A program made the translations under genes and the position numbers. Below are positions 5,817 through 53,118 of a DNA stretch of 64,000 bases, in pieces (within the stretch, counting starts at the first letter, position 1; every line of letters begins with the position of its first letter). Under the pieces are notes generated by a model. That model was given only the letters and a program-made list of their open reading frames with translations. It did no database searches and was not told the origin of the DNA. The stretch spans positions 285,670 to 349,669 of the forward strand of contig OY760686.1 in the NCBI GenBank assembly GCA_963663865.1. The letters run 5' to 3'. The stretch comes from Spirochaetota bacterium (lineage in GTDB: Bacteria; Spirochaetota; UBA4802; UBA5550).

Positions 5817-6956
5817 TTGCTTTACTTACAAATGTTATCTTATTATAGGAATTTCAATTTAATTATGATTAATCATATTATCAGGCTTTTAATCGTTGTT
5901 CTCATAATTGCAACAATCGGATTCAACAGTCAGCATACTGTTTTGGGAACATCGTTTGGATATTCCGAAACCAAACCTGCCGGCCATAAATTGGGGAGCA
6001 TTCAGAAAACCGCTGACGGCTCCCTTATTATTTCTACCGCCGATCTTGCGGCGCCTATTCGAGGATACGCAGGAAATATTCCGCTAAAAATTTACGTTAG
6101 AGACGGACTTATCACCCGGATTGAACCCCTCGAAAACTCTGAGACCCCTTCGTTCATGAAGTTCATTACGCGCAAGGGTTTTTTCGGCAGCTGGAATGGA
6201 CTCACACTTGAGGAAGCATCAACAAGAGAAGTGGATACCATAACCGGAGCCACAATGTCTACAGACGCCATCATACAGTCAGTCAGGCTCGCGTCGCGGC
6301 ACGCGCTCGGAAAAAACACATCAGAAACCGGCAGCCCCTTCTTTCAGTTGAAAACCCTTCTGATTGTGCTGGTCATTCTTGCCGGATTATGCCTGCCGCT
6401 CTTCTTTCGGTCGAAAAAGTACCGTACATTACAGCTTGCTCTGAACGTTGCCGTTCTTGGATTCTGGGGCGGCACTTTTGTTTCTCTTTCCATGCTGACA
6501 GGTTTTTTCAGCAGCCCGTTTAGTATTGCACTGTCAGCGATACCGGTGCTTCTGATAATAGCGGCCCTCATTATGCCGCTCGCCGGGAAAAGAAGTCATT
6601 ACTGTTTCTGGTTATGCCCCATGGGTTCGGCACAGGAACTTATTGGTAGAATCCCTGTCAAAAAAATCCGCCCATCAGCCAAGACCCTCAGAAAGCTGAC
6701 CCTGTTCAGGGAAGCGCTCTGGTTCACGCTTATGCTCATCATGCTGTGCGGTACCGGGTTGCAGATTATGGATTATGAAATTTTCCCGGCTTTTCTTTTC
6801 AGCTCTGCCTCCCTGCCCGTGCTGATTGCAGCTGGTATATTTCTGCTTCTTTCCCTTTTTATCAACAGGCCCTACTGTCGATTCGTCTGCCCCACGGGAA
6901 CGCTGTTAAAGCTTATTGACCGGGATAAGGAGAAAAAGACTTTGCCGCATGTATAA
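5817..6956 (+). CDS. polytopic membrane protein with FMN-binding domain and CxxCP motifs (NosR/NapH-like redox protein)
   Basis: FMN_bind-like DTITGATMSTDAI; several TM helices; CFWLCPMG and CRFVCPTG motifs; start uncertain (TTG 5817, ATG 5832 or 5865). Confidence 0.55.
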   Translation: MLYLQMLSYYRNFNLIMINHIIRLLIVVLIIATIGFNSQHTVLGTSFGYSETKPAGHKLGSIQKTADGSLIISTADLAAPIRGYAGNIPLKIYVRDGLITRIEPLENSETPSFMKFITRKGFFGSWNGLTLEEASTREVDTITGATMSTDAIIQSVRLASRHALGKNTSETGSPFFQLKTLLIVLVILAGLCLPLFFRSKKYRTLQLALNVAVLGFWGGTFVSLSMLTGFFSSPFSIALSAIPVLLIIAALIMPLAGKRSHYCFWLCPMGSAQELIGRIPVKKIRPSAKTLRKLTLFREALWFTLMLIMLCGTGLQIMDYEIFPAFLFSSASLPVLIAAGIFLLLSLFINRPYCRFVCPTGTLLKLIDRDKEKKTLPHV

Positions 6957-7032
6957 AACATGGTATAAATAAAAACTAAAGGAGGAACGTGCGAGCACTA
7001 CTCCCCGGAGAATAGATGCCGCCCCAAACATC

Positions 7033-7671
7033 ATGAATAAAACAAATCTGCTTACACTGCTTTTAGCCGCTGCTCTGCTCATTGTAACTGTCAGAGCAGC
7101 TCTTTTCAGGATGGAATCAAAAGAGGAAGAGAAAATGACAACTTCAAACAGCGAGTTAATAATCGAAGCAATAAAAGCAAGGACCAGCATAAGGTCATAC
7201 CAGAACAAAAAAATCGAACAGGAAAAGATTACTGAAATCCTTAAAGCTGCCATGTCCGCCCCTTCCGCCCGCAACAGGCAGCCCTGGCTCTTCATTGTCA
7301 TTGATGATAAAGCTGTCCTCAAAGAGCTTGGAGACGCGCTTCCGAATGCAGCTATGACAGCCAGTGCTCCCCTGGCGATAGCGGTGTGCGGCGACCTGTC
7401 AAAGACTCTTGAGGGCGAGTCATCTGAGTACTGGATACAGGACACATCTGCCGCCACAGAGAACCTTCTTCTGGCTGCAAGCGCGATGGGCCTTGGAGCT
7501 GTCTGGACTGGCGTTTATCCGGACAAAGGCAGAATAGGTACTCTTCGTAAGATACTCAACATACCTGAAAACATCATTCCTCTGAACCTTATTCCGATAG
7601 GCTATCCTGAGGGCAGCTCGAAACCCAAAAACAAATGGGATGAGGCCAACATACATAAAAACAGATGGTAA
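7033..7671 (+). CDS. nitroreductase-family flavoprotein with N-terminal hydrophobic/signal segment
   Basis: SIRSYQNKKI...SAPSARNRQPWLFIVI nitroreductase core motifs. Confidence 0.8.
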   Translation: MNKTNLLTLLLAAALLIVTVRAALFRMESKEEEKMTTSNSELIIEAIKARTSIRSYQNKKIEQEKITEILKAAMSAPSARNRQPWLFIVIDDKAVLKELGDALPNAAMTASAPLAIAVCGDLSKTLEGESSEYWIQDTSAATENLLLAASAMGLGAVWTGVYPDKGRIGTLRKILNIPENIIPLNLIPIGYPEGSSKPKNKWDEANIHKNRW

Positions 7672-8762
7672 CAGCCATGAATCCTTTTTTCTTCCAGTCA
7701 CCGGTGAAGGCGTTTATGGGGTATGAATTCGCTCCTCTTCTAAAGCAGCTCTCGGCCCCTTACAGCCGCATAGCTGTCATCACCGGCCAAACGTCTGCCG
7801 TAAAATCTGGATTTATCGACGCGATCAAACCCGCCCTAAAGGACAAAGACCTTCTCTATTTCAGCGAAATCGAAGAGAACCCGTCCATCGAAACCGTAAC
7901 GAGGGGCGCTGGAGAGGTCAGAAAATTTAACCCCGACTGTATCCTCGCGTTCGGCGGCGGCAGCCCTCTTGATGCGGCAAAGGCAATCGGCCTCATGTCG
8001 GCGAACCCGCTTCCCTTCGGGGAGCTCATGACTTCTGACGCGCCAATATCCCCCCCTCCGATAATAGCAGTCCCGGGAACCTGCGGCACCGGAAGCGAGA
8101 TGAACGCCTACTCCATCATAACCGACACGGCTAAAATGGACAAGCTCAACCTTACCAGAGAGAACATGTTCCCACGCTTCGCTGTTCTCGAACCCTGTTT
8201 TCTGAATTCCCTGAGCGACGATACGAGGTTCTCAACCCTGTTTGACGCCTTCTCTCATGCATTCGAAGGCTTTGTATCAAAACGTGCGAATCCCTTTTCC
8301 GATGCACTGGCCCTTCACGCCATTGAAATCATTTTTTCAATTATAGCCGATTACAGCAAAGATATGGGCTTCCACACAGAGCGAGCGCTCTACGCGTCAG
8401 CCGTAGCCGGTGCAGTCATACTGCATACGGGAACGACCATTCTTCACTCACTTGGATACTACCTGACCAACAGGAGGGGCGTTCATCACGGCAAGGCAAA
8501 CGCGCTCCTTCTCGAAGGCTATATGAGCATGCTGCAGGACGGAGGAGCGTCAAAACTCGGAAAAATCCGCGAAATGGAGCGCTCCGCAGGCATAGACATT
8601 TGCAGATTTATCAGGGATTTCTATGGGTCCTCGGGCCTTGAAGGCTACGTCGACGCAGACGACTTTGATGATTTCGCCTCGTACTCGTTGAGCAAATCAA
8701 ACGCAGCGTCTACACCGGTAGCGCTGTCACCCGAGGTTTTAAAAAAGCATTACGCTGATTAA
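7665..8762 (+). CDS. iron-containing alcohol dehydrogenase family protein
   Basis: GGGSPLDAAKAIG Fe-ADH signature; 7-nt overlap with upstream gene suggests operon with FMN-protein and nitroreductase. Confidence 0.8.
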   Translation: MVTAMNPFFFQSPVKAFMGYEFAPLLKQLSAPYSRIAVITGQTSAVKSGFIDAIKPALKDKDLLYFSEIEENPSIETVTRGAGEVRKFNPDCILAFGGGSPLDAAKAIGLMSANPLPFGELMTSDAPISPPPIIAVPGTCGTGSEMNAYSIITDTAKMDKLNLTRENMFPRFAVLEPCFLNSLSDDTRFSTLFDAFSHAFEGFVSKRANPFSDALALHAIEIIFSIIADYSKDMGFHTERALYASAVAGAVILHTGTTILHSLGYYLTNRRGVHHGKANALLLEGYMSMLQDGGASKLGKIREMERSAGIDICRFIRDFYGSSGLEGYVDADDFDDFASYSLSKSNAASTPVALSPEVLKKHYAD

Positions 8763-8802
8763 AACTTCTTTTCTGCGGGGGGATAATGACCTCAAAACCC
8801 CC

Positions 8803-11800
8803 TCAGCCTGTCTGCTCAATACGTGAACCTGTCTGCGACTTGACAACCCTGATCTGAGAGGGGATGCGGTTTCTCAACTCCTGAACATGCGAGATGATCC
8901 CTACCATTCGTCCGCAGCGCACTTCGTCAAGTATCGAAAGGGCCCGGTCAAGAGACGCCTCGTCAAGGGTCCCGAAACCCTCATCAATAAAGACAGAATC
9001 AAGCTCGATTTCACCCGCCCTTGACTGAATAACATCGGCCAACCCCAGAGAAAGCGAGATGGAAGCAAGAAACTTCTCGCCGCCGGAAAGGGACTTAACG
9101 CTGCGCGGGCGCCCGCTGAACGAGTCAAACACCTCAAGTTCAAGGCCAGCCTGAGAACGTCCATCCTCAATCTCAGTGCTCACTGACATTGAATAGCGCC
9201 CCTCAGTCATCCGGTTAAAGCGAAGGTTTGCAGCGGAGGCAACCTCGCTGAGGTAAGCGCTCAGCACGAAGTTCTGAAAGTTTATCCTCCTGGGGTTTTC
9301 GCCGTTGAGGTCTCCGGCAATTTCATCAATACGGACAAGTTCATCCTGAAGACGGGCGGACTCGGCAGAGACTCGAGTGTATTCCGTGATGAGCCCCTGC
9401 AGCCTGTCGATTCTGGAGGCCGCTTCACGCACCTCGCGATCAGCGTCTTTTTTCTTCAGGTTCAAGGCTTCAACTGCCTCTCCAAGAACGCACATAACAG
9501 GTTCAGTTTTACCCTTCAGGTTTTCTTCAGATTGATGAAGCCTTATTTCAGCCTCCCGCAGGCTGTCGCGGAAGCGCTGTACCTTCTCCTGCTGTTCTTT
9601 AATCACGCTCTCAGGCCGGAAGTACCGTTCAGCTTCAGACGCCGAGTCAAACCCTTCTTTAGAACTGCCTTTTTCCGCTTTCTCGACGGCCTTTTCAACC
9701 GACACCCTCAGCCTGGCTGCCGCTTCAGAGAGCTCCCCTTCCCGGCCCTGAATCCGCTTAAGCTCAAGTCCCGCATTGTTCAGCTCAGCATCTATACTTT
9801 TAATTTCAACACCGGCCGCTTTCACCTTTTCTTCTGTTTCCAGAATGCGGTTCTGGATATTGCCAATCCCCTCGAGGTCAGCTTCAAGAGCCAGAGCTGA
9901 GGCCTCGGCAGAAGCCAGCCGGCTTTCAGCCGAAGATATTTTATCCTTCAAAAGGCCAAGCCTGGCTGCAGACTCGTTCAGTTGCACATCCTTTTCATCA
10001 AGACGGTGTCTCGCATCGGCTGCCAGGGAGCTTTTCTCTTCAAGAGCTTCAACTTCATGCTTTAGCTTTTCGAGCTGAACCTTCGCCTCATCCAGCCTGT
10101 CATCTTCATCAAGACCAAGCGCAGCGACAGCACCGTCGACCTCCAGAATCAGCGACTCAGCCTTCCTGAGCCTTTCTTCCGCCGCGGCAGCCGCCGCGAC
10201 ACTGCCCGCTATATTCTCCCGGACTGCGGCAAGCCTTTCGTCGTCGGTAAAAACACCTGCTCCGTCAGCCGGTGCAGGATGCGACAGAGAGCCGCAGACC
10301 GGGCATGGCCTTCCTTCCTCAAGGCCGGCCGCCAGGCCGGCAGCCGCGGCGGCCTCCTTCCTCGCGGTTAGTGCAGCCTCATCGGACCTGTTGACATCCA
10401 ACACCTTATTAATACGCGCTATATCTTCCCTTGCCCCGTCAGCTTCCGAAACATAGGATTTCCTCTTATCAAGCGCTGTTTCCCGTGCGGCTAAGCTTTC
10501 AAACAGTTTTTCCACCTTCACAAGCTCGTTGCGCTTTTCCCGCATTTCCTCAGGCGGGACTGAATTCTGAGTTATCAAAGCTCTCAGGGAAGCTGCCTCG
10601 GCGCAAAGCGCCTCATACTCATGCGAAGCCTTATCTGACTCTCCTCTAACGCTTTCAGCAACCGCCTTAAGCTCTGCGGCCTCCTTTCGCTTCTCAATGA
10701 GCGCGGACGATTTTGCGAGGAGCGGCCTCAGCCTGCCGAGCTCTGAGTTCCCTTCCGAAACGGCTTTCTCCAGCTTCGGCCGACGGGCTGAGGCTGCATC
10801 TGCCGCCTCGGACCTCCTGACAGCGGCGGCCTTTTCCTTTTCAAGCTCTGCAAGCCTTGATTCTGTCTCCACAAGCTCCTTTTTCAGCCTTGCGGCATCT
10901 TCGATAACCGGCCTCAGTTTTTCAGCCCTGATAACCCTCTGCAGCGCTGTCTCAATCTTTTCTATTTCAGGAATTTTTTCTCTAAGAACAGCAACTGCGT
11001 CAGCTCTGGCCTTTTTTTCTTCAAAGGCATTCTGAAGCGACCTTCCCTTTTCAAGCTCTATGAGCGCCACATCGTATTTTAGCTGTATTTGCGCTGCGGC
11101 ATCTTCCTTTTCCTTCAGCTGAAGCTTCAGCCCTTCAAGCTCCTCAGCGCTCCTTTCCGGGTTCAACTCTGATCCAAGCCTCTTTAAATCCGCAAGCTTC
11201 GAGTTAAGTGCAGCGCGTCCAGAATTTCTGAGCTCTCTCGCGCGATTCGAAATTTCCTCATGCGCTCTGACCGGGAAGAGCTTCATGAGGATGGCCCTTT
11301 TCTGATCGGTTGGAGCCACAAGAAAATTCTGAAACTCTCCCTGCGGAAGAAGTACTATTCTCGAAAACTCATCCTTTGAAAGATGAAGAAGCCTTTCAAC
11401 CTCGGCGTTGATCTCCGTCACCTTCCCTTCCACGGGAGCCCAGCCTCCGTCTCTGAAACGGAAAAAGCTGACGTTCTCAGGCTGCTCAACGGTCCCGCTG
11501 CCCCGCCTGGCCGGCCTGTCATGTCTCGGGACTCTCTTTATCTTGTATCGCGATCCTCTGATAGCGAAAGTAAACTCGGAGAATGGCTCGCTGTATTCAG
11601 GCATGTACCCTGAAACCGCGGAAGCAGGGTTTCTGGTCCCTGTAAGCGAACCATAAAGGGCAAACAGAATCGCGTCAAAAACCGTCGTCTTCCCGGAGCC
11701 GGTAGGCCCTGTAATCAGGAAGAAGTCGGCTTCGTTTCTAAATGAAACCGTCTGTTCGGCAGAAAAGGGGCCGAATCGGCATACTCTCAGACACTCAGGC

Positions 11801-11805
11801 CTCAT
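8803..11805 (-). CDS. sbcC: SbcC/Rad50-like ATPase subunit of SbcCD nuclease
   Basis: Walker A GPTGSGKTT, ~700-aa coiled coil with CPVCGS zinc hook, C-terminal LSGGEKF signature and D-loop; 4-nt overlap with sbcD. Confidence 0.85.
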   Translation of the reverse strand: MRPECLRVCRFGPFSAEQTVSFRNEADFFLITGPTGSGKTTVFDAILFALYGSLTGTRNPASAVSGYMPEYSEPFSEFTFAIRGSRYKIKRVPRHDRPARRGSGTVEQPENVSFFRFRDGGWAPVEGKVTEINAEVERLLHLSKDEFSRIVLLPQGEFQNFLVAPTDQKRAILMKLFPVRAHEEISNRARELRNSGRAALNSKLADLKRLGSELNPERSAEELEGLKLQLKEKEDAAAQIQLKYDVALIELEKGRSLQNAFEEKKARADAVAVLREKIPEIEKIETALQRVIRAEKLRPVIEDAARLKKELVETESRLAELEKEKAAAVRRSEAADAASARRPKLEKAVSEGNSELGRLRPLLAKSSALIEKRKEAAELKAVAESVRGESDKASHEYEALCAEAASLRALITQNSVPPEEMREKRNELVKVEKLFESLAARETALDKRKSYVSEADGAREDIARINKVLDVNRSDEAALTARKEAAAAAGLAAGLEEGRPCPVCGSLSHPAPADGAGVFTDDERLAAVRENIAGSVAAAAAAEERLRKAESLILEVDGAVAALGLDEDDRLDEAKVQLEKLKHEVEALEEKSSLAADARHRLDEKDVQLNESAARLGLLKDKISSAESRLASAEASALALEADLEGIGNIQNRILETEEKVKAAGVEIKSIDAELNNAGLELKRIQGREGELSEAAARLRVSVEKAVEKAEKGSSKEGFDSASEAERYFRPESVIKEQQEKVQRFRDSLREAEIRLHQSEENLKGKTEPVMCVLGEAVEALNLKKKDADREVREAASRIDRLQGLITEYTRVSAESARLQDELVRIDEIAGDLNGENPRRINFQNFVLSAYLSEVASAANLRFNRMTEGRYSMSVSTEIEDGRSQAGLELEVFDSFSGRPRSVKSLSGGEKFLASISLSLGLADVIQSRAGEIELDSVFIDEGFGTLDEASLDRALSILDEVRCGRMVGIISHVQELRNRIPSQIRVVKSQTGSRIEQTG

Positions 11806-12923
11806 AGCTCTTCCTCCTTTTTAAGGCTGCGGAAAAGCTCAACCCTCTCCTGACTCGGCTTTTTTCCGTATAGATATTCATGAAAGCTGCCGAAGTCTTC
11901 TTCTATCGTCCGAATATCACTGCCAGTATTTATCCTTATGCTTTCCTTTTTTGCCGCCTGAACCGCCTGCTGCCTGACAGACAGGATACCGGGAAACCTG
12001 TTTCTGAGAAGCTCAATTGGATTCATGACAAGCCCGCCGTCGGTGAGCTCGGCCTCCACATAGCAGTCCGTAAATTCCGCAAACTCCGGCGAGTTCAGAA
12101 GATCATGAAATGCCGCCCTGAGCCGTTTCATTTTGCGGACGGGTTTCAGAGGAATTCTTTCAACTTCCGCCGCACCCTTCTTAACTTCCACCGACAGAAA
12201 GCACTTCTCGTCGGACTCCTCTGAAAATGAATACTGAAGAATTGATCCTGAATAGTGCACTCTGTCTCCAGACCTCTGAGGCCTGTGCAGATGTCCCAGC
12301 GCTGTGTAGTCAAAGGGAGAGAACGCATCTGAATTCACCATACCGGAGCCTCCGACAAAGACCCTCTCGGAATCAGTGGTCTCGCCCCCCTGAGTAAAGA
12401 GATGAGCAGCACAAATATTTACAGCCGATGGATCGCAGGCGGCCTGTACCCTTTTTACTGCTTCCCGCAAAATATCATCCTGCGACAGAGCCGGTGTTTC
12501 CTCGTCTTCAGAGTGAGCTGAAAAAGCTCCGCTTCCGAAAAACGGAAAAAGATAAAAATGATTGTTCTCAATAACTACAGGTTTGACAATATCTTCATAG
12601 CGTGTGCGGATATAGACCCGTCCCAGCTTCATAATCTCCGCTCCGAACGACAGCCTTACAGCGTTGTCGTGGTTGCCTGGAATTATCAGCAGCGGGATAT
12701 CCGTTGCTGACCGCAGGTCATCAAGAAAACAGCTGAAGAGCTCCACTGCCTCGGGAGAAGGAATGCTTCTGTCATAGATATCGCCGGCAATAACCATGGC
12801 GCCGTAACCGCCTGAAGCGGCATTATCAATAATTTGAGAGAGAACAGCTTTCTGATCTTCAATCAGGCTTCTTTCATAAATAATCTTTCCAAGATGCCAG
12901 TCAGAGGTGTGCAGTATTTTCAT
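11802..12923 (-). CDS. sbcD: SbcD/Mre11-like nuclease subunit
   Basis: MKILHTSDWHLGK, GDIYD, GNHD calcineurin-like phosphoesterase motifs. Confidence 0.9.
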   Translation of the reverse strand: MKILHTSDWHLGKIIYERSLIEDQKAVLSQIIDNAASGGYGAMVIAGDIYDRSIPSPEAVELFSCFLDDLRSATDIPLLIIPGNHDNAVRLSFGAEIMKLGRVYIRTRYEDIVKPVVIENNHFYLFPFFGSGAFSAHSEDEETPALSQDDILREAVKRVQAACDPSAVNICAAHLFTQGGETTDSERVFVGGSGMVNSDAFSPFDYTALGHLHRPQRSGDRVHYSGSILQYSFSEESDEKCFLSVEVKKGAAEVERIPLKPVRKMKRLRAAFHDLLNSPEFAEFTDCYVEAELTDGGLVMNPIELLRNRFPGILSVRQQAVQAAKKESIRINTGSDIRTIEEDFGSFHEYLYGKKPSQERVELFRSLKKEEEL

Positions 12924-12983: not shown

Positions 12984-13012
12984 TTGACAGCGTCTGTAGA
13001 TGCGCATAGACT
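12984..13012 (+). promoter_or_regulatory. candidate sigma70 promoter for yjbQ (TTGACA-17 nt-TAGACT)
   Basis: TTGACA 12984-12989, 17-nt spacer, TAGACT 13007-13012, 46 nt before ATG 13059. Confidence 0.35.
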
Positions 13013-13058: not shown

Positions 13059-13448
13059 ATGAAAACAATTGAAATTAAATCTTCAAAACGATCAGAACTC
13101 ATAGACATCACAGCAAAGGTTGCGGAACACGTTTCCGGAAGCGGAAACGGTATGTGTATTGTCTATACCCCACATACAACGGCCGCAGTAACAATAAATG
13201 AGAATGCTGACCCTGATGTAAAATCCGATATAGTCAAAGGCCTTGACGCCCTCTCTATTAACCGGATCAGCTACGAACACGCGGAGGGCAACTCACCGGC
13301 CCACATCAAATCGTCCCTGCTCGGATGCTCTGAGCTGATTCCAATCGAAAACGGAAAACTCTGCCTGGGAACATGGCAGGGAATATACTTCTGTGAATTC
13401 GACGGCCCGAGGCAGCGCAGGGTTTATGTACAAATAATAGCCGGCTGA
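13059..13448 (+). CDS. yjbQ: YjbQ/UPF0047 family protein (secondary thiamine-phosphate synthase-like)
   Basis: 129 aa; conserved TPHTTAAVTINE and LGCSELIPIENGKLCLGTWQGIYFCEFDG blocks. Confidence 0.8.
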   Translation: MKTIEIKSSKRSELIDITAKVAEHVSGSGNGMCIVYTPHTTAAVTINENADPDVKSDIVKGLDALSINRISYEHAEGNSPAHIKSSLLGCSELIPIENGKLCLGTWQGIYFCEFDGPRQRRVYVQIIAG

Positions 13449-13484: not shown

Positions 13485-14285
13485 ATGAAAATTTCATCGG
13501 CATTTCAAAAGTGCCATATGCTTATTTTTTTCACCCTGCTTTGCTCATGCGCGACTATTAAAGGCGCAGACATAAGCGAAGAGGGCCTTGATCAGCTGCG
13601 TGCCGAGAACAGCCTTATGAAAAGCACTATATCACTTTTAAAAAGAGATAACAGCGTCACAAGGAAGGAAAATCTTGAATACCGCCGTCAGCTTGAGGAG
13701 CTCAAAGCTTCAGTCGAGAAGCTTAACTCTGACATAGAATCTCTTAAGGAAAATCACAGGAAAGAAATCGCCCTGAAAAACAGCGCTTACCGCGCACTCG
13801 AAAACCAGAATAAAATACTTCAGTCTGAAAGCTCTGCCCGGCTTTCGGCCCTTATGAAATCGAGCAAAGAAAACGAGTCTAAACTCCGCGAACAGATTAC
13901 AACCCTCAACAGGGAGAAGCTCGAACTTGAATCGGCTTTCAACTCCGAAAGAGAAGCTTTAAAAAAGCAGTTTTCTGAAAAGGAGTACGAGTTCACCCGT
14001 TCACTCGAACAGATAAACTCTTCACTCTCAGCGGCAGAAAATGAGGTTAAAATTCTCAGAAAAAAAATTCAGGAAACTGAAGAGACCAACAGCGCTCTGC
14101 GTAGTGAGATCAACTCCCTCCGGACCCGTCTTGGACTTCCAGAGTTAGAGGCGTTGGAAGAAAAGCAAGCACCGGCAGATGAAGCCACTGACATGAATAC
14201 AGGCAAAACTGAAAGCCCGAGTCCTCCGGATGACAGCAGCCCTCTTGAAGAAAACCCGGAAGCGGAGACAAAGTCGAATCAATGA
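13485..14285 (+). CDS. coiled-coil lipoprotein
   Basis: lipobox LLCSCATIKG; long heptad-rich Glu/Lys/Leu region; Pro/Glu-rich tail; ATGA overlap with next gene. Confidence 0.55.
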   Translation: MKISSAFQKCHMLIFFTLLCSCATIKGADISEEGLDQLRAENSLMKSTISLLKRDNSVTRKENLEYRRQLEELKASVEKLNSDIESLKENHRKEIALKNSAYRALENQNKILQSESSARLSALMKSSKENESKLREQITTLNREKLELESAFNSEREALKKQFSEKEYEFTRSLEQINSSLSAAENEVKILRKKIQETEETNSALRSEINSLRTRLGLPELEALEEKQAPADEATDMNTGKTESPSPPDDSSPLEENPEAETKSNQ

Positions 14286-16432
14286 AAACCAGTCATTATC
14301 TGAAATACATAATTGCAGCCTCAACCCTGCTGCTGTTGGGCGCCTCTGATTCAACAAATGAGCCCGCCATCATATCGCTGCTGCTATCATCCAACCTCCA
14401 GGGGCGTTTTACATCAACTGAGAAGGATCAGGATATCAGCGATCCAATGCTCACAACCGCACAGACAATTATTGCCGCCAGAGAGACCAGGCAGCCAGAC
14501 GTCTATATTGATCTTGGGAATTCCTTCGCGCCCGGCGAGCTCTCCCGCTTCAGCCATGGACTCCTCATGTCAGAGTATTTCGCTTTTCTCGGCTGCGACG
14601 CGACGCTCCTTTCATCGTTTGACATCTCTCTTGGAGTAGATACCCTAACATACCTTCAGACTGTCAGCAGGACATCTTTCCTCTCCGCCAATATCAGAAA
14701 AAAGAACAAAAAGCCGTTTGCAGAATACATTATAAAAAAGATCGGCGGTCACTCAATCGCATTCATAGGGCTTTCATCGGACAGTATAATCTTCAGCGCC
14801 GCTGAAAAGGAGCTGTACGACGCCAACCTCGAAGTAATGGAAGACGCCATTGAATATTCCGCGGAACAGGCAAAAGCTGAAGGCGCAGACCACATTGTAC
14901 TCGTCACAGGGCTCAGCCTTCAGGACACCCTCAGAATGCTCAGAGACTTCACAGACATCTCTCTTGCCATTTGCGGGGGCGACAACACGGCCAGAGTTCC
15001 AGGCGGAACGCTCACAAGAGTGGACCTCCCTGACGGCAGAAGCATTGTTATGATGCCGGAAAACCTTAAACTTGAACTTCTTAAGCTAAGGGCCGGCAAG
15101 ATGCTTACACTTGAGTCCTATGAGGAAATTCCGGTTTCACATCACAGAGTCTCAAGCCCTCTATACGGCCAGTACAGCAGAAGGCTCGCTCTCTGGAAAC
15201 GCCAATTTATGGAAGAGGAGGACATCGTTGTAGGAAAAACACCCCCTCAGGGCGGACTTGTAATAGACAGAACCTTTGCTGATTTTCTGCGAAACAGGTT
15301 CAACGCTGAAGCCGCTGTGCTCGAACCGGGCACAATCAATCCGGCGGGCTTCAAAGGATCTGTGAAAGGCTATGAACTTCTTGCGCTTACATCCTCCGAC
15401 CAATTCTTGTTCACCTTTGACCTAACAGGAGCGCAGCTTCTACAGTTAGCGTCAAACTCAAGGGGACTTGTGATATCAGGCATAAAGGACAAAAAGATAC
15501 AGGGCTACCCGGTCCTTCCTTTCCGGACCTACAGAGTAGTCTCAACTCAGCCGGCAATTAATACGGTTTCTTCCATAGTTGGAGAGCAGCTAAAAACAAC
15601 TAACTCATGGCAAAAGATGACTGAAGTCATGAGAGACGACCTTGTAAACTCCGGCACCCTTTTTTATGACAACGCGGAGATCTCAGACAGACGGTTCAGA
15701 ACAACAATCGATATTTTTCTCTCAAACTTTATCGACCGTTCAAAGGTACGCAATGAGAACGACGAGACTCCCCCCGCCGGTATGCCGGAAGACAGCTACA
15801 CAAGATGGGGACTCGAAAACAGGATTAACATAGCCATATACAACTCGTATCACCAGTTTATAATTAACCCTTACCTCTTCTACGACAAACAGGGAGAAGA
15901 CTATCTGAAAAACCGGGCCGGAGGGGCTTTCATCTATAACTATAACTTTTCGGAGAACATCAAGCCTTACCAGAAGTCACAGATGGATACACAGGTGGCA
16001 TCAGTTGACGGCCTGAGGCCGTTTATTCTCAGAGAAACGGTCGGAGCTATACTTGACGCTCCCTGGGAGATTAACAGCAAAAAGGTCATTTCGACAAAGT
16101 GGGGCGTTGGCCTCGAAAAGCAGCTGTCCGGCCCTGAGGAACAGATGCTTTACGGTCTTGAAACAATAATCAACATCAGGCTGCCATTTCTTTCATACTT
16201 TACAATGTTTTCAAACACAAACTCGTTTTTAGCCTATCAGAGATCCGGCGAGAGTTCAAAAAACATTCGCATTGAAACTGAAAACGGAATCAGCGCTGCG
16301 ATCAACAGCCACCTCTCAGCCGCGGTCAAGCATCGTTACTACTACAGATTCAGGGGCTCCGACAAACACCTCTACACCGATTCCCAGCTCATCACATCCA
16401 TAGACCTGAAAGCTGATTTTAAGATTTGGTAG
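14282..16432 (+). CDS. secreted UshA/5'-nucleotidase-like protein with degenerate metal-binding motifs (predicted catalytically inactive) and ~170-aa C-terminal extension
   Basis: signal peptide; blocks matching UshA order but with ligands replaced (HTNDHHG->LSSNLQG, GGD->LGN, GNHEFD->SSFDIS, THMGH->VTGLS, GGHSQ->GGDNT); conserved FLSANI and IAFIGLSSD blocks; ends ...KADFKIW. Confidence 0.6.
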   Translation: MKTSHYLKYIIAASTLLLLGASDSTNEPAIISLLLSSNLQGRFTSTEKDQDISDPMLTTAQTIIAARETRQPDVYIDLGNSFAPGELSRFSHGLLMSEYFAFLGCDATLLSSFDISLGVDTLTYLQTVSRTSFLSANIRKKNKKPFAEYIIKKIGGHSIAFIGLSSDSIIFSAAEKELYDANLEVMEDAIEYSAEQAKAEGADHIVLVTGLSLQDTLRMLRDFTDISLAICGGDNTARVPGGTLTRVDLPDGRSIVMMPENLKLELLKLRAGKMLTLESYEEIPVSHHRVSSPLYGQYSRRLALWKRQFMEEEDIVVGKTPPQGGLVIDRTFADFLRNRFNAEAAVLEPGTINPAGFKGSVKGYELLALTSSDQFLFTFDLTGAQLLQLASNSRGLVISGIKDKKIQGYPVLPFRTYRVVSTQPAINTVSSIVGEQLKTTNSWQKMTEVMRDDLVNSGTLFYDNAEISDRRFRTTIDIFLSNFIDRSKVRNENDETPPAGMPEDSYTRWGLENRINIAIYNSYHQFIINPYLFYDKQGEDYLKNRAGGAFIYNYNFSENIKPYQKSQMDTQVASVDGLRPFILRETVGAILDAPWEINSKKVISTKWGVGLEKQLSGPEEQMLYGLETIINIRLPFLSYFTMFSNTNSFLAYQRSGESSKNIRIETENGISAAINSHLSAAVKHRYYYRFRGSDKHLYTDSQLITSIDLKADFKIW

Positions 16433-16443
16433 GATGGAGCCGT

Positions 16444-16929
16444 ATGGAAAAAGTTTATATAGCATCACCTCTCGGCTTTTCTGAATCAGGTACAGCCTTC
16501 CTCGAAAGCCGGATAATCCCGGCCGTAAAAAGTGCAGGCTTCATTCCCGTCAACCCGTGGGATGAAGCCCCGGAAGCGATGCTGCTTTCTGCGAAAACAA
16601 TGCCGCCGGGAGAAGACAGGCACAGAGCGTGGAGGGATATCTGCCGTGTAATAGGCCGAACAAACGAAGAACTGATCTCCGCATGCGGCATTATGTTAGC
16701 CGTGCTCGACGGACCCGATGTCGACAGCGGCACTGCTTCAGAGATAGGCTACGCGTCGGCTCAAGGCAAACCAGTCATCGGTTACCGAAGCGATTTCAGA
16801 CAGGCCGGAGACAATGAGGGTTCAACGGTAAACCTGCAGGTTGAGCATTTCATCTACAGAAATGGGGGCTTCCTGATTAGCTGCTGCGATGATATACCTG
16901 AAGCATTGAGTAAAATCCGATTGTTGTAA
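16444..16929 (+). CDS. nucleoside 2-deoxyribosyltransferase-like protein
   Basis: VYIASPLGF (YxAGP-like) and DSGTASEIGYASAQGKPVIGY with conserved Glu; track start 16426 is TTG, ATG 16444 with GGAG SD preferred; overlaps end of upstream gene. Confidence 0.55.
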   Translation: MEKVYIASPLGFSESGTAFLESRIIPAVKSAGFIPVNPWDEAPEAMLLSAKTMPPGEDRHRAWRDICRVIGRTNEELISACGIMLAVLDGPDVDSGTASEIGYASAQGKPVIGYRSDFRQAGDNEGSTVNLQVEHFIYRNGGFLISCCDDIPEALSKIRLL

Positions 16930-17035: not shown

Positions 17036-17623
17036 ATGAAGACACGAAATTCTCTTTTTCTTGCTGCTCTGTTCTTTTTCGCTGCATTTACTGAAATCGG
17101 CTGCGACAATTCTGACTCGTCGGACACTCAAGCGGCAAGCACTACTGAAAACCTGAAAGACACCGTACAGCTGCCTCAGAACTACTATTACGATGATGAA
17201 CTATTCCCCGATGAGCTTTCAGGAATATACGGCGACTGGATTCCATACAGCGCCTGCTCAGGAGACATGGCTGTAGTATGTACAGACCTCACGATTGAAG
17301 AGAATAAACTTGATTATGATTTTCTGAGAATAGAGAGAAATGGAAAGTTCAAACTCTTCAAGGAGAACGAACTCATAATGTACGGGAAGATATATCTTTA
17401 CCGGACAAACGAGAATGAAGAGCCGGCAACCTACAGCATTTTATTCTCTCCGGACAGCAGCCTCGGCTGCGATTCTGCTCCTGTAACTGAAGAAGAAGTA
17501 TGTCCGCAGGTAAACGGTGTCACGACACCTCACATCTCATTCGATTGGGTCAGAATAACTGACAACTCTCTGGTTTTCTACTTTCCCCACCTTTACGAAA
17601 TGGGCTACATCAGGGCTGATTAA
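17036..17623 (+). CDS. lipoprotein of unknown function
   Basis: signal MKTRNSLFLAALFFFAAFTEIGC; no recognisable domain. Confidence 0.5.
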   Translation: MKTRNSLFLAALFFFAAFTEIGCDNSDSSDTQAASTTENLKDTVQLPQNYYYDDELFPDELSGIYGDWIPYSACSGDMAVVCTDLTIEENKLDYDFLRIERNGKFKLFKENELIMYGKIYLYRTNENEEPATYSILFSPDSSLGCDSAPVTEEEVCPQVNGVTTPHISFDWVRITDNSLVFYFPHLYEMGYIRAD

Positions 17624-17631
17624 CTTGCAGA

Positions 17632-17680
17632 GAAGTCTATCAGGTTTAACAAACAGCCTGATAGACTTCACTTATTTCCA
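17632..17680 (+). terminator. rho-independent terminator-like hairpin after lipoprotein gene
   Basis: 13-bp perfect stem gaagtctatcagg/cctgatagacttc with 12-nt loop, followed by ACUUAUUUCC. Confidence 0.45.
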
Positions 17681-17981: not shown

Positions 17982-18617
17982 ATGGCGATGGATATTTTTA
18001 CTCTTAATATTTTCTCAAAAGGCGGCTTCATGATTTTTCCGATTATTCTCGGATCAATCGCCGCTCTCGGACTCACCATTGAACGGGCTATCTATTTTAG
18101 AAGACTTCGCTGCAATACCTCTGCATTCTCGAAGGAGATTCTTGGCCTTGTTGAGAACAATCAAAACTCTGAAGCGGTAACGCGATGCAATACCGAATTA
18201 CATCCTCTTGCCCCTGTTTTTGCAGCCGGCATAAATAGTATCGCCAGTGGGCCGGGAGTCATGGAGCGCGAAATGGAACGCGAAGGAGCCCTTCAGGTAA
18301 CATTGCTCGAAAAGAACCTGCCGGCGCTCATTACCATAGTTGGTATTGAACCAATGATGGGATTTCTGGGAACAATTATTGGACTCATCAAGGCTTTCAT
18401 GAATTGGGAGAAATACGGAACTAGCGTCACGGTTGAGCAGCTCGCCTCAGGCATCTACCAGGCCATGGTCACGACAGCGGCTGGACTGGCTGTAGCGATT
18501 CCATTCTACGTTGCCTACAACCTCTATACAGCACGTGTAAACAGAATAGCCTCTGAGCTCAACTACTTCGGAGACGCTTTGATAAGCGCTGCAGACAAAG
18601 GCGGATCAATCAGGTGA
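17982..18617 (+). CDS. exbB: MotA/TolQ/ExbB-family proton channel
   Basis: 3 TM helices with conserved ExbB C-terminal region (GLLGTIIGLIKAF...). Confidence 0.8.
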   Translation: MAMDIFTLNIFSKGGFMIFPIILGSIAALGLTIERAIYFRRLRCNTSAFSKEILGLVENNQNSEAVTRCNTELHPLAPVFAAGINSIASGPGVMEREMEREGALQVTLLEKNLPALITIVGIEPMMGFLGTIIGLIKAFMNWEKYGTSVTVEQLASGIYQAMVTTAAGLAVAIPFYVAYNLYTARVNRIASELNYFGDALISAADKGGSIR

Positions 18618-19039
18618 AGATTAAAACTCGTTTGAAAAGCAGCGGCACGCTTGATTCTGTCGCCATGACAGACATCATCATGAATCTCTTTATTTTCTTT
18701 TTTGTCAGCTTCAGCCTGCTATACACCTTCAATCCTTACAGCGAGTCCAAAATCAAGATCAGCCTTCCCAGGGGAACAACACAGGTAAAGCCGGAGCAGG
18801 ACGGGCCCGTAATCGTAAGTATTGATTCAGGAAATCAGATATACATTAGCGGTGAGCAAATATCTCCAGAGAAACTCATTGAATCGCTGAAGACAAAAGC
18901 TGAAACCCTCCAGCGTCACGGGGTAATTGTCAGAGCTGACAAGTCGGCAATGGTCGACTTTTTCGTTAAAGTTCTTGATGCCTCAAAACAGGCCGGGGTT
19001 GAAAAAATAGCAATCTCAATAGAACTTGATGAAAAATAG
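18614..19039 (+). CDS. exbD: ExbD/TolR-family biopolymer transport protein
   Basis: single N-terminal TM (MTDIIMNLFIFFFVSF) then periplasmic ExbD-like domain; 4-nt overlap with exbB. Confidence 0.8.
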   Translation: MKIKTRLKSSGTLDSVAMTDIIMNLFIFFFVSFSLLYTFNPYSESKIKISLPRGTTQVKPEQDGPVIVSIDSGNQIYISGEQISPEKLIESLKTKAETLQRHGVIVRADKSAMVDFFVKVLDASKQAGVEKIAISIELDEK

Positions 19040-20808: not shown

Positions 20809-21396
20809 TCATCGTTTGATCTGAACGGGTTTTGGCACTTTGAGCCTTAAAGCAACAATGTCGCTGAATTTATTCATCAGGTCGCTGCTGCTGTATTCAA
20901 GAAATCTGTACATCGTTGTCCCTTTTATCTTTTCATGGAACAAATCCTTTTCGTTCTCGAATTGTGAGTCATAGTGTTTTTTTGAGTGACCATGAGCAGC
21001 CTTTACCACTCCAAGCCTTCTTATATCTCCATTGAAGTCAGGACTGATATGGTAAAGTTCATGAAAGATCACCCTGAGTTTTTCCTCTGGAGGAAGGTCA
21101 AAAAATCTCGGCATGTAGAAGTATATTATGTACTTCTGTTCAATTCCATTGTAAATCACGGGAGGAATTCTGAACCACCTTCCATAGTGGAGGATTTTTT
21201 CCGCGCCTCCCTTAAAACGGGAAGGAACGACCTTGGCAAAGGTACACCCGCCGGAACCAGCCCTGTTGGTACTCAAACAGACAAGCGTTTTTGACGGGTC
21301 AATGTGAGAAAATCCTGGCACAGATTCTGTAATCTCCCTGATAATGCGCGATAGATTTTCTGTTAGATCAATTTTTTCAGGTGAAGGCCTGTTCAT
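20809..21396 (-). CDS. HExxH-motif protein (putative zinc metallopeptidase, SprT/YgjP-like), co-operonic with recN
   Basis: FHELYHISPDF motif; 4-nt overlap with recN stop. Confidence 0.45.
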   Translation of the reverse strand: MNRPSPEKIDLTENLSRIIREITESVPGFSHIDPSKTLVCLSTNRAGSGGCTFAKVVPSRFKGGAEKILHYGRWFRIPPVIYNGIEQKYIIYFYMPRFFDLPPEEKLRVIFHELYHISPDFNGDIRRLGVVKAAHGHSKKHYDSQFENEKDLFHEKIKGTTMYRFLEYSSSDLMNKFSDIVALRLKVPKPVQIKR

Positions 21397-23114
21397 ACGG
21401 AAGTTCGGACCGTTTGATTCTCAGAAATTCTCACCATTTCCTCTGCATGTTGAAGAGATAGCTCAGTGATAGTTTCGCCGGCCAGCATTCTGGCGATTTC
21501 TCTGACCTTGTCTTTCCGTGAAAGCTTTTTTACAGCTGTTGTTACCCTTTCACCGCTCTTCGCCTTCTGAATATAGAAATGTGTATCCGACATGGATGCT
21601 ATTTGAGGAAGATGCGTAATAAGCAGCACCTGTCTTTTTGCTGACAACAGCTTCAGCTTCTTTCCGACTACATCAGCAGTCTTACCGCCGACACCGGCAT
21701 CAACCTCGTCAAAAATAAGGGTATCAACAATATCGGAACTCAGGATTACATTTTTTATCGCTAACATTATCCTCGACATCTCACCCCCGGAAGCCACCTT
21801 GTTCAGCGGCTTTAAATCCTCGCCTTCGTTCGCGGCAATCATAAATTCAATTCTGTCAAGGCCGTGAGGATAGAGCATATATCTTTTGCCTTCCGACTCC
21901 ACTTCGCCGGATTCACTGATCTCCCGCTTAATCGAAACCTTAAAAAGCGTGCCTCCCATACCCAGGTCCGTAAGCTCAGACATTACTTTTTTTTCTAAAA
22001 CTGAGGCGGCAGACATCCTTCTTTCTGACAGTTCAAGGGCTTTGTCCCGGGCCTGTAATACGACACGTCTTTCATCCTCTTTCAAGCGCTCAATCTCTTC
22101 ATCGCTTGATGTTATAGCATGAAGCTCTCGTCTTGCTTTGTCAGCATATTCCAGAATCTCTTCTATACTGTTCCCGTATTTTTTCCTGAGGCTTGAAATC
22201 AAAGAGAGTCTTTCCTCAATGAAGTTGACCCTTTCCGGTGAAAAATCAATTCTTTCATTATAGCTTCTCAGAAATTGGGCAGCATCTTCCAGGCTGAAGT
22301 AAGACTCTGTCACAGACTCCAGAATGTTTGATATATCGTTATCAAATTCAGAAGCCGAAGAAAGATTCTGCTCTGCCTTTTTTAAAAGCTGTAGAACCGC
22401 TCCTTCGCCATTGAGCAGCTCTGAAGCCGTGCTTACGGATTTGAAAAGCTTTTCTGCGTTGGCAAGCATGTTTGCTTCATTTTTAAGCTCAACCTCTTCA
22501 GAGATGTTCAGTCCCGCGTCTTCTATTTCCTTGATCGCAAACGAATTAAACTCAATTCTTCTCAGTTTCTCTCGCTCATCTATTTCGAATGAAGAAAGCT
22601 TTTCCCGGATACTGTTCAGATGTTCGTGAATTTTCCTCATCCCGGAAACCGAATCCTGAAACCCGCCGAAAGAATCGAGAAGGTCTCTGTGCTTTGATAT
22701 TCTTGCGATTTCCTGGTGTTCGTTCTGGCCGTGAATATCAATCAGATACTGCGAGATTTCTCGGACCTTGGCCAATGGGACCTGTACGGCATTAACAAAG
22801 CACCGTCCCTTGCCGCTTGAGTATAGCTCTCTCCTCATAATCAGCGTGTCATCATATTCTATTCCTGCGTCATTGAGTAGGCCGGCAACTTCGGGCAACC
22901 CGGATACATCGAAAACCCCCTCGAGAGTTGCCTTTTCGAAACCCGTGCGAATCATATCCGTAGTCATCTTTTCGCCAAGAATTCCCGAAATAGCGTCTAT
23001 CAGAATGGATTTTCCCGCGCCGGTCTCACCGGTAAGGACATTCATTCCATCGCTGAATTCCATTGACAGGTCTTCGATTATAACAAAGTTCTTAATCCTG
23101 AGTTCAAGAAGCAT
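21393..23114 (-). CDS. recN: DNA repair protein RecN
   Basis: MLLELRIKNFVIIE...GETGAGKSIL Walker A; SMC-like coiled coil; track start 23183, ATG 23114 (ML..L.I.NF) preferred, 4 nt after nadK stop. Confidence 0.9.
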   Translation of the reverse strand: MLLELRIKNFVIIEDLSMEFSDGMNVLTGETGAGKSILIDAISGILGEKMTTDMIRTGFEKATLEGVFDVSGLPEVAGLLNDAGIEYDDTLIMRRELYSSGKGRCFVNAVQVPLAKVREISQYLIDIHGQNEHQEIARISKHRDLLDSFGGFQDSVSGMRKIHEHLNSIREKLSSFEIDEREKLRRIEFNSFAIKEIEDAGLNISEEVELKNEANMLANAEKLFKSVSTASELLNGEGAVLQLLKKAEQNLSSASEFDNDISNILESVTESYFSLEDAAQFLRSYNERIDFSPERVNFIEERLSLISSLRKKYGNSIEEILEYADKARRELHAITSSDEEIERLKEDERRVVLQARDKALELSERRMSAASVLEKKVMSELTDLGMGGTLFKVSIKREISESGEVESEGKRYMLYPHGLDRIEFMIAANEGEDLKPLNKVASGGEMSRIMLAIKNVILSSDIVDTLIFDEVDAGVGGKTADVVGKKLKLLSAKRQVLLITHLPQIASMSDTHFYIQKAKSGERVTTAVKKLSRKDKVREIARMLAGETITELSLQHAEEMVRISENQTVRTSV

Positions 23115-23118
23115 ATAA

Positions 23119-23982
23119 CTATCGTCCCCAGTTGAGTTTTTCTCGGAGTATTGTGTAGAAGCTTTTTTCGGGATGTGATACAAGGCTGACGCTTTTATCG
23201 GTCAGCCGGAAGACTACCTCGTCTCTGCTGTCAATATCGATAGCAACCTGACCGTCAATTGTCAATAATAAATTGTTGGCCTCAGATACTATCCTGGCCA
23301 GCAGATTTGACGATGAAGGAAGAACCATCGGCCTTGTTCCAAGAGAATGCGGGCAGACAGGGTTCATCAAGAAAACATCAGTCGCGTCAGGTGAAATAAT
23401 AGGTCCGCCTGCCGACAGCGAATATGCAGTCGAGCCGGTAGCTGTTGAAATTATAAGCCCATCGCCATAGTACGAATTCAGAAAGTTGCCGTTAAGCTCC
23501 AGTTCAAGTTTGATTGCCCTAGAAAATGAACCCTTTGAAAGAACACCGTCATTGACAAAGTACTGCCTGCTTAACTGTTTCCCCTTTCTGTAGAGAATTG
23601 CCTCAAGCACGGATCTTCGTACAATATTGAAACAGCCGGAAAGGAGATCAGGCAGATATTTTTTAAACTCTTCAGGGCTGAATTCAGTTAGAAATCCCAG
23701 CCTTCCTCTGTTAACTCCGAGAATGGGCTTTTCGTTTTCGACAAACATCCGCGCTGTACGCAAAAAAGTCCCATCCCCCCCTATTGAAAAAACCAGATCG
23801 GCTCCCTGCACAAATTCACCCGAGCAGACAATATGCTTTTTCAGCTTTCCTGAACGGACAATATCATAGTCCGGAAGCTGAATAGAGATGCCTCTCTCTT
23901 CAGCCGCTCGGATCAGGTCATTTATTATAATTACAGATATTTCGTCGTCAGGTTTCAGGTTGACAGAAACTGTCTTAATCAT
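23119..23982 (-). CDS. nadK: NAD+ kinase
   Basis: GGDGTFL and NRGRLGFL motifs. Confidence 0.9.
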   Translation of the reverse strand: MIKTVSVNLKPDDEISVIIINDLIRAAEERGISIQLPDYDIVRSGKLKKHIVCSGEFVQGADLVFSIGGDGTFLRTARMFVENEKPILGVNRGRLGFLTEFSPEEFKKYLPDLLSGCFNIVRRSVLEAILYRKGKQLSRQYFVNDGVLSKGSFSRAIKLELELNGNFLNSYYGDGLIISTATGSTAYSLSAGGPIISPDATDVFLMNPVCPHSLGTRPMVLPSSSNLLARIVSEANNLLLTIDGQVAIDIDSRDEVVFRLTDKSVSLVSHPEKSFYTILREKLNWGR

Positions 23983-27623: not shown

Positions 27624-27624
27624 A

Positions 27625-28272
27625 TTAAAGCTGTGAGTCTTTCGGCATAACTTTTATTTTACGGTATATTCCCTGGCCTTCACTTTTAGTCATTACACGG
27701 CTGTCGTTTTGGAGGGCCAGGTGTATCAAACGTCTCTCAAAAGGATTCATGGGCTCAAGTGTCCATGGCTTTCCCGTTCTAACAACCTTCAACGCGATTT
27801 CTTTAGAGAGTTTTCTCAGAGCCTTTTCCCGTTTATCTCTGTAATCTTCAATATCGAGAATAATCTTTTTTTCAGTACCTGTACGGTTCCCAACTATGAG
27901 ATTGACCATAAACTGTAGAGCTTCAAGGGTTTTCCCCTTCCGTCCTATTACGATTCCAGAACTTTCACTGCTTTCGAGCTCAACATAGACTTTTGACTCA
28001 ATCTCTCTGGTCTCCTTGATAGTGGTATTTAGTCCCATTCTGCTGAGAATCTCTGATATTACTTCCTTTGTTACAGAAGCAATCTCGGCTGTGTCCTGGC
28101 TTAGAAAAGCTCTTATCTTTGCCTGCTTTGAGACTCCAAATCCGAAAAGCCCGCTTTTCCCCTGTTCGAGAACCTCAACTCTGATCGCGGAAGGATCTTT
28201 GACACCAAAGTTTTCCATAGCCTTTTTTGTTGCTTCATCAACCGATTTCCCTTCGACTTCAATCACTTTCAT
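27625..28272 (-). CDS. jag: Jag/KhpB RNA-binding protein (KH + R3H)
   Basis: KH-like and R3H (LTKSEGQGIYRKIKV) regions; ATG 28272 with GGAGGA SD preferred over track start 28332; conserved position after yidC. Confidence 0.8.
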   Translation of the reverse strand: MKVIEVEGKSVDEATKKAMENFGVKDPSAIRVEVLEQGKSGLFGFGVSKQAKIRAFLSQDTAEIASVTKEVISEILSRMGLNTTIKETREIESKVYVELESSESSGIVIGRKGKTLEALQFMVNLIVGNRTGTEKKIILDIEDYRDKREKALRKLSKEIALKVVRTGKPWTLEPMNPFERRLIHLALQNDSRVMTKSEGQGIYRKIKVMPKDSQL

Positions 28273-28300
28273 CCGGCTTCCTCCGTATGTAGTATGAAAC

Positions 28301-49277: not shown

Positions 49278-49560
49278 TTCAACACCTCTTGTTTGATTAA
49301 TGTCCTATAACTGTTTCCGGGTTTGAGGTGCAAACATTAATTAAAATATTTTTAGGTCATTCAATAATGCCGGCTGGTAAATTACTTTTTCTCTGGAGGG
49401 GTTGATGCTATATTTGTTAATTATTCAACTCTGCAAAATTTCTCAGCTTGATGAGTCCTATTACTAGCCTAATATAATTGTTTAATATTTTTTGTTTTTC
49501 GATTTGAAACATACTAATGAAGTGAGCCTTATCTGACATAATCTATGAATTCACTAAAAA

Positions 49561-49926: not shown

Positions 49927-49938
49927 TCCTCTGCTCCT

Positions 49939-53082: not shown

Positions 53083-53118
53083 AAAAAACAGAAACAGGGC
53101 GTCAAACAGCCCTGTTTC
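53083..53118 (-). terminator. rho-independent terminator after outer-membrane-protein gene
   Basis: minus-strand hairpin stem gaaacagggc/gccctgtttc (10 bp), 8-nt loop, followed by UGUUUUUU. Confidence 0.5.

Follow-up and report, generated by a model that had tools for sequence, protein, structure and literature searches.

A predicted outer-membrane pseudo-5′-nucleotidase and its coiled-coil lipoprotein partner in Spirochaetota and Desulfobacterota

This work concerns a pair of genes found in a window of 64,000 nucleotides from a Spirochaetota bacterium (contig OY760686.1, positions 285,670 to 349,669; all positions below are counted from the first letter of the window), in which a coiled-coil lipoprotein is encoded directly upstream of a 716-amino-acid (aa) relative of the UshA-type 5′-nucleotidases. 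The larger product is a new architectural variant in the 5′-nucleotidase superfamily, accompanied by a new partner family, and the variant is real, conserved, uncharacterised and rare. From its sequence it appears to be a genuine pseudo-enzyme in which none of the six metal ligands remains and the catalytic His is replaced as well, and structural modelling predicts that it ends in an outer-membrane β-barrel. Such an architecture, combined with a non-catalytic role in the periplasm, as a binding protein, scaffold or sensor acting with the lipoprotein and not in nucleotide metabolism, is the reading towards which the evidence leans somewhat. An earlier examination of the same DNA, made from the letters alone (the original prediction), had described a three-gene nucleoside or nucleotide unit that also included the downstream gene for a nucleoside 2-deoxyribosyltransferase-like (NDT-like) protein. 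That grouping was not borne out, because the three genes are not conserved together in other genomes and the NDT-like protein carries no signal peptide.

If this description is correct, the pair represents an uncharacterised outer-membrane family with an obligate lipoprotein partner, common to Spirochaetota and Desulfobacterota, and it illustrates clearly how an enzyme fold can be put to new use in the bacterial envelope. To our knowledge, no other pseudo-enzyme with a 5′-nucleotidase fold is fused to a membrane barrel, and this would be the first; a full-text literature search found no paper on the combination of dead nucleotidase and barrel. The module is laid out as follows:

13485..14285, + strand: gene for the 266-aa coiled-coil lipoprotein (open reading frame list; only generic coiled-coil noise in Pfam and NCBIfam)
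14282..16432, + strand: gene for the 716-aa predicted outer-membrane pseudo-5′-nucleotidase, stop codon included (open reading frame list, AF2 model, Foldseek)
14366..15130, + strand: metallophosphatase-like N-domain, aa 29-283, with five degenerate motifs, TSNLQG, DLGN, SSFD, VTGLS and GGDNT (hhalign, hidden Markov model alignments)
15158..15220, + strand: long helix joining the two domains, aa 293-313, also present in UshA (secondary structure assigned by DSSP to the AF2 model)
15227..15649, + strand: fold resembling the 5′-nucleotidase C-terminal domain, aa 316-456, canonical phosphate-binding Arg lost (Pfam below threshold, Foldseek)
15698..16429, + strand: predicted 12-stranded outer-membrane β-barrel, aa 473-716, with the C-terminal end ...DFKIW (AF2 models)

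Conservation of the two-gene module

Both genes occupy the positions at which they had been predicted, and they overlap by the four bases ATGA (14282-14285, in the context caATGAaa), so that the start codon of the 716-aa protein shares bases with the TGA stop codon of the lipoprotein gene. One genome per species was scanned for relatives, covering 185,579 species; the source genome was not among these representatives. Relatives of the 716-aa protein were present in 98 of the genomes, and the locus counts given below refer to the best 80 loci of these 98 species. The 80 loci come from Spirochaetota, many of them labelled Leptospirales, and from Desulfobacterota, with hosts that include Desulfosarcina variabilis, Desulfopila sp. 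IMCC35006, Desulfatitalea and Desulfuromonas. The 716-aa protein of the source genome is only about 39% identical to every one of its relatives.

When SbcCD, YjbQ, the NDT-like protein, the coiled-coil lipoprotein, a 195-aa lipoprotein, ExbBD, RuvB and PTS-IIA were used as tblastn queries (E ≤ 1e-3) against the 80 loci, the coiled-coil lipoprotein was the sole recurring neighbour. A homologue was found in 67 loci, always directly upstream and on the same strand, and several of the misses were loci truncated upstream. The NDT-like gene, yjbQ and the 195-aa gene were found in none of the 80 loci, and exbBD was absent except for one unrelated exbB match. All-versus-all clustering of 1095 open reading frames recovered only two universal families, the 722-aa protein and the ~269-aa lipoprotein (71 of 78 loci), the next most frequent family being limited to 9 loci. 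The gap between the two genes lies mostly between −4 and +98 nucleotides (nt), with frequent 4-nt overlaps, in keeping with the translational coupling proposed originally. An upstream coiled-coil lipoprotein also accompanies P0113, which represents a distant subfamily, and none was found upstream of P0107, which represents another. The conserved unit is a self-contained envelope module of two genes (13485-14285 and 14282-16432), not of three.

A 5′-nucleotidase fold without its catalytic machinery

That the 716-aa protein is homologous to 5′-nucleotidases is in no doubt, the similarity being far beyond chance, even though standard family models reach it faintly. Among NCBIfam models it matched UshA_like_PCGU (1.4e-14) and SoxB (6e-7), all far below the cut-offs; Pfam gave no Metallophos match, and 5_nucleotid_C fell below its gathering score (E 0.0024, 18.4 bits vs 23.6). 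A single-sequence search of the PDB found SoxB at 3e-4, and a profile of 21 relatives found SoxB at 1.5e-8 and the Thermus 5′-nucleotidase at 3.9e-6, with NadN and CD73 also matched. Alignment of the family profile by hhalign to a canonical protein with Metallophos and 5_nucleotid_C domains (P0038) gave a probability of 97.4 over 357 columns. An AF2 model computed from the family alignment reached a mean predicted local distance difference test score (pLDDT) of 83.2, and Foldseek searches with this model returned the Thermus 5′-nucleotidase 2z1a at 4e-24, UshA at ~1e-22 and CD73 at ~1e-19, in alignments of ~510-540 columns that span both nucleotidase domains. With the characterised family (E. 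coli UshA, Thermus 2Z1A, CD73, NadN, SoxB) the protein shares the N-domain, the long linker helix and the C-domain, the LSANI-type blocks (FLSANI and IAFIGLSSD, both found as predicted), the GG of motif V and export by a signal peptide, here predicted to be of type I. It differs from the family in lacking the residues that bind the metals, the His-Asp pair used in catalysis and the Arg that clamps the phosphate, and in being fused to an outer-membrane barrel and paired with a lipoprotein, which is seen in no characterised member.

The loss of the metal site had been proposed from a manual alignment, and three independent profile alignments (hhalign against the canonical enzyme and hidden Markov model alignments to SoxB and to the Thermus 5′-nucleotidase) agree with it at every motif. 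DxH is replaced by N38-L-Q40, GD by G79-N80, GNHE by S111-S112-F113-D114, the His of motif IV by G210 and GHxH by G233-D234-N235-T236. The substitutions extend to the whole family: among 79 full-length relatives, N80, D114, G210 and D234 are found in all 79, N38 in 78 and S112 in 75, and none of the 79 has a His at a metal-ligand position. The position of the catalytic His, F113 in the source protein, is variable (K in 38 relatives, R in 15, N in 8, Q in 5 and M in 4, with F and S also found), and so is that of the dyad Asp, here S116. Architecture, barrel included, and ligand loss are shared by the distant subfamilies (P0102-P0122), which carry other residues at the replaced positions. Because the loss is shared by the family, it is not explained by a sequencing artefact or by a decaying gene.

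The former active site nevertheless looks maintained rather than decaying, given that the substitutes at the old ligand positions are nearly invariant. Of the 26 N-domain positions that are at least 95% conserved, about half (~13-17) fall within the five former motifs or next to them. This cleft may have been reshaped into a new binding pocket. It may equally be a metal-free polar core held by hydrogen bonds and salt bridges, and in 53 of the 79 sequences a Lys or Arg at the old catalytic-His position may occupy the space once taken by the metals. In the C-domain, the counterpart of the phosphate-clamp Arg (GGIR) is position 353, where the family has N, S, T, K, L or Q and R never dominates; the first base-stacking aromatic aligns to the variable position 372, with a conserved Y/F at 374, and the second falls outside the alignment. 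With the clamp Arg lost and 5_nucleotid_C below its gathering score, the original description of the protein as a nucleotide-binding scaffold is left without support.

Pseudo-enzymes of the metallophosphatase fold that serve as scaffolds include Vps29 and the B-subunits of eukaryotic DNA polymerases, which kept the calcineurin-like fold, lost the metal ligands and took on non-catalytic roles. Those are cytosolic single-domain proteins of eukaryotes and archaea, whereas the 716-aa protein belongs to the bacterial envelope and to the 5′-nucleotidase subfamily, and carries a predicted membrane barrel.

A predicted C-terminal outer-membrane barrel

The original prediction saw a secreted protein with a C-terminal extension of ~170 aa. 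In the full-length AF2 model this region is larger, ~245 aa (residues 473-716), and folds into 12 long β-strands (residues 473-715), most of which alternate hydrophobic and polar faces. A barrel-only model (residues 458-716, 15 relatives) reproduces the 12 strands with a pLDDT of 83.2 and a predicted template modelling score (pTM) of 0.77. On these models, the C-terminal barrel would make the 716-aa protein an integral outer-membrane protein rather than a secreted one.

The barrel profile gave no match in the PDB at E ≤ 10, and Pfam gave only sub-threshold matches to DUF481 and OMP_b-brl, with no match to Channel_Tsx or to the autotransporter model PF03797. A profile search of 1.84 billion representative proteins retrieved 76 proteins only, and every full-length match was a protein of 690-760 aa with the barrel at its C-terminus, never without the dead nucleotidase module. 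Sequence identity to the barrels of Tsx, KdgM/NanC, PcoB and OMPLA is 6-11%; Tsx, KdgM/NanC and OMPLA are stand-alone barrels and PcoB has a disordered N-terminus only, whereas here a folded module of 450 residues is always attached. Conservation is as high in the barrel as in the soluble domain, which is unusual for barrels and suggests a constrained lumen.

The segment that precedes the barrel bears on the side of the membrane on which the dead enzyme domain would lie. It consists of only 16 residues, with a helix of 4-6 residues, in both AF2 models, and neither model contains a long pore helix before strand 1. Since a barrel with an even number of strands has both of its ends in the periplasm, and the pre-barrel segment is so short, we infer that the dead domain would lie beneath the outer membrane, on its periplasmic side.

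The coiled-coil lipoprotein

The 266-aa partner begins with a signal peptide ending in the lipobox LLCSC, in which Cys22 (codon 13548-13550) is the predicted site of acylation. Almost all relatives have a lipobox of the form [LFI]-S/A-C followed by T, A or S at +2, and the Cys (C1) is invariant in the family alignment A3; with Thr, Ala or Ser at +2, the lipoprotein is predicted to be targeted to the outer membrane. Next to the membrane the family carries the conserved motif L-x-AEN-x-LMKKRL-x-L-x-EREN-x-VL-x-x-EN, which appears in the source genome as L-x-AEN-x-LMK...RxN-x-V...EN. It is followed by ~200 residues of coiled coil, of which ~160 can be aligned past the motif across the family, and by a variable acidic, Pro-rich tail. 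A search with the family profile returned 27 clusters only, several of which share a contig with the barrel protein. The lipoprotein family is therefore as rare as the barrel family, and the two are exclusive to each other. For the barrel and the lipoprotein alike, Pfam and NCBIfam contain no model.

In JGI annotation, P0008, P0021, P0125 and other members of the 716-aa family are labelled ‘2′,3′-cyclic-nucleotide 2′-phosphodiesterase (5′-nucleotidase family)’, and the partner is labelled ‘chromosome segregation ATPase’. Both names are probably misleading, the first in view of the ligand loss and the second in view of the lipobox and the coiled coil, and the present assignments would correct these likely misannotations.

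Genes that accompany the module in particular lineages

Outside the pair itself, neighbouring genes recur only within particular groups. In seven Desulfobulbales loci (L006, L007, L012, L015, L017, L021 and L023) the pair follows, with almost no gap, a sigma-54 activator of the PspF type, which has AAA+ and helix-turn-helix domains and no receiver domain. These loci also have a divergent group made up of pspC, pspA and the gene for a universal stress protein, giving the order pspC<pspA<|pspF>lipoprotein>pseudonucleotidase. Relative to the match at ~8001, the pspF region lies ~1.8-4 kb upstream. In six Leptospirales loci (L042, L051, L062, L064, L066 and L070) a secreted 653-aa tetratricopeptide repeat (TPR) protein and a HAMP-SpoIIE (PP2C) membrane phosphatase are encoded within ~40 nt downstream, with a STAS protein nearby, a set that looks like partner-switching signalling. 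Genes at a looser distance of 280-500 nt upstream are a membrane synthase of glycosyltransferase family 2 (GT2) in five Desulfosarcina-type loci and a low-molecular-weight phosphotyrosine phosphatase in five other loci. That the pair is closely tied, independently in two subclades, to regulators of stress signalling is suggestive, and any role in envelope-stress sensing or signalling is speculative. Little is understood of the envelopes of these organisms, and such a role would open a testable way into how they signal envelope stress; among the hosts, Desulfosarcina variabilis and Desulfopila sp. IMCC35006 are in culture.

Possible roles of the pair

According to the non-catalytic, periplasmic reading favoured here, a type-I signal peptide would export the 716-aa product and the 12-stranded barrel would insert it into the outer membrane, where the barrel would hold a two-domain UshA-fold module incapable of metallophosphatase chemistry. 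The co-translated lipoprotein would probably touch the barrel protein through its conserved membrane-proximal helix, while its coiled coil would project into the periplasm. We infer that the two proteins would form a physical complex.

Several observations weigh against this reading. The replaced ligand positions could be invariant for the sole reason that they stabilise the fold. The rarity of the module shows that it is not a core component of the envelope. The stress-signalling neighbours are confined to subclades and are absent from the window, and a sigma-54 promoter motif upstream of the lipoprotein gene was found in none of 71 loci, nor in the window; control of the module by PspF through such a promoter was rejected on that count. 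Finally, a 12-stranded barrel placed C-terminally to a passenger is also the layout of the type Va autotransporters.

This last point is the starting point of the alternative in which the barrel exports the dead nucleotidase and displays it at the cell surface as a non-catalytic binder of extracellular nucleotides, extracellular DNA or ligands of host or partner cells. Type Va autotransporters thread a helix of ~20-30 residues through the pore, and the short pre-barrel segment described above, with its 4-6-residue helix, does not fit that arrangement. In comparison with EstA and AaaA, the 716-aa protein lacks the long linker helix, has no Autotransporter Pfam match and comes with a lipoprotein partner. 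Surface display is for these reasons considered unlikely, if still worth bearing in mind.

A more specific form of the periplasmic reading would make the pair, a dead nucleotidase hung from its barrel and a coiled-coil lipoprotein that spans the periplasm, a trans-envelope sensor of an envelope ligand, or of a mechanical or chemical perturbation, that relays to stress regulators of the inner membrane, namely PspF/PspA in Desulfobulbales and the TPR, HAMP-PP2C and STAS partner switch in Leptospirales. Such a sensor would work by a logic like that of RcsF, with a fossil enzyme as its raw material. This version is put forward tentatively and with low confidence.

It is very improbable that the pair senses or scavenges nucleosides or nucleotides, the dead nucleotidase binding them, a Tsx-like barrel conducting them and the NDT-like enzyme processing them. 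The proposed enzyme is encoded in none of the 80 loci and would be cytoplasmic, the residue that would grip a phosphate is lost and variable, and genes for nucleoside or nucleotide transport, salvage or other metabolism are linked to the module in no locus examined. The structural resemblance to Tsx is not robust either: other 12-stranded barrels score within one Z unit of it, Tsx is outside the Foldseek top 50 and, as noted, Channel_Tsx does not match.

Equally little probability is given to a tether or spacer, in which an Lpp-like lipoprotein and an OmpA-like barrel protein hold the outer membrane to the wall or set the width of the periplasm. An outer-membrane-sorted lipoprotein whose coiled coil of ~200 residues is long enough to span the periplasm, and which is paired with a barrel protein bearing what would be a periplasmic domain, is what such a device would need. 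The C-terminal Lys used by Lpp, however, is not conserved (K in 17 of 71 lipoproteins), the distal tails are variable and disordered, no peptidoglycan-binding domain was found by Pfam or NCBIfam, and few members of its phyla have the module, too few for a core tether.

Very improbable as well is a cryptic enzyme whose Asn/Asp/Ser pocket binds Ca2+ or Mg2+, or no metal, and which catalyses some other periplasmic reaction, a hydrolysis or a transfer. The invariant substitutes do indicate a pocket under selection, and Asn and Asp can ligate either ion. Against it, the positions of the general acid/base His (K/R/N/Q/M/F/S) and of the dyad Asp are variable, the distant subfamilies place different residues at the substituted positions, and we know of no metallophosphatase-fold enzyme that works without any His ligand.

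The local transcript and the NDT-like neighbour

In the source genome the module is flanked by genes that do not travel with it elsewhere:

12984-13012: promoter-like site upstream of yjbQ (consensus scan)
13059..13448, + strand: yjbQ/UPF0047 gene directly upstream of the lipoprotein gene (Pfam 3e-42, NCBIfam 2e-47)
16444..16929, + strand: gene for the 161-aa NDT-like protein (Pfam PF05014)
17036..17623, + strand: orphan gene for a 195-aa lipoprotein-like protein (no family in Pfam, NCBIfam or PADLOC)
17632-17669, 3′ of the 195-aa gene: strong terminator-like hairpin with a 15-bp stem (terminator scan)

Consensus promoter and terminator scans, on which the proposal is based, suggest that a local transcript may comprise yjbQ, the lipoprotein gene, the 716-aa gene, the NDT-like gene and the 195-aa gene. 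Its possible first gene is yjbQ, and the hairpin at 17632-17669 is the likely end.

Within this arrangement the NDT-like gene is probably co-transcribed with the module. Its product appears to be a bona fide member of the Nuc_deoxyrib_tr family, as had been predicted from its signature: Pfam PF05014 matches at 1.4e-21 (77.2 bits vs a gathering score of 28.8) and NDTs of the PDB match at 1.6e-9 to 1e-7. Alignment to 7m5h and 8pqp shows that DxG(T/V)xxE(I/L)G and Y(I/L)ASP are conserved, so that the protein shares with nucleoside 2-deoxyribosyltransferases the Tyr of YIASP and the Asp and nucleophile Glu of DSGTASEIG. The coupling to the 716-aa gene that had also been claimed is not found when translation starts at ATG. 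The open reading frame at 16426-16929 would give 167 aa from a TTG; the first ATG, at 16444, gives 161 aa, leaves an 11-nt gap after the 716-aa stop codon and has GGAG just upstream, and the same start had been called in the annotation of a metagenomic genome that is 98% identical. As no signal peptide was found in the protein, it would be cytoplasmic and outside the envelope module. Linkage of an NDT-family gene to the module is peculiar to the source species, the adjacency being seen only in strains at least 90% identical to the source. The NDT-like gene is a local neighbour only, and not part of the module.

In a collection of 15 billion proteins, the 195-aa lipoprotein-like protein is the sole member of its 90%-identity cluster. 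Beyond the hairpin, which separates it from the module, a MotA/ExbB-ExbD pair is encoded at 17982-19039, with no adjacent TonB/TolA-like gene.

Other features of the window

Scans of the whole window with Rfam gave no match, and the PADLOC anti-phage defence models gave coiled-coil noise only. The G+C content is 0.49-0.535 at 6001-12000, over sbcC/sbcD, vs 0.33-0.45 in most of the window, a rise that could represent compositional heterogeneity or foreign origin. At 20809-23183, on the − strand, a PhageMetallopep (PF18894) protein is encoded beside an SMC/AAA_23-type ATPase, an arrangement reminiscent of defence or mobile-element genes. A DNA methyltransferase of the Eco57I/TaqI_C/N6_Mtase type at 44953-46689 is a candidate type IIG/IIS restriction-modification enzyme, and a very large protein of 1431 aa, of the BcrAD_BadFG/DUF2229 CoA-enzyme-activase type, is encoded on the − strand at 36629-40924. 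The genes mnmE, yidC, mnmG, gyrA and gyrB lie at 26268-29968 and 47391-63903, and their presence suggests that the window belongs to the replication-origin region; GC skew is negative across its whole length.

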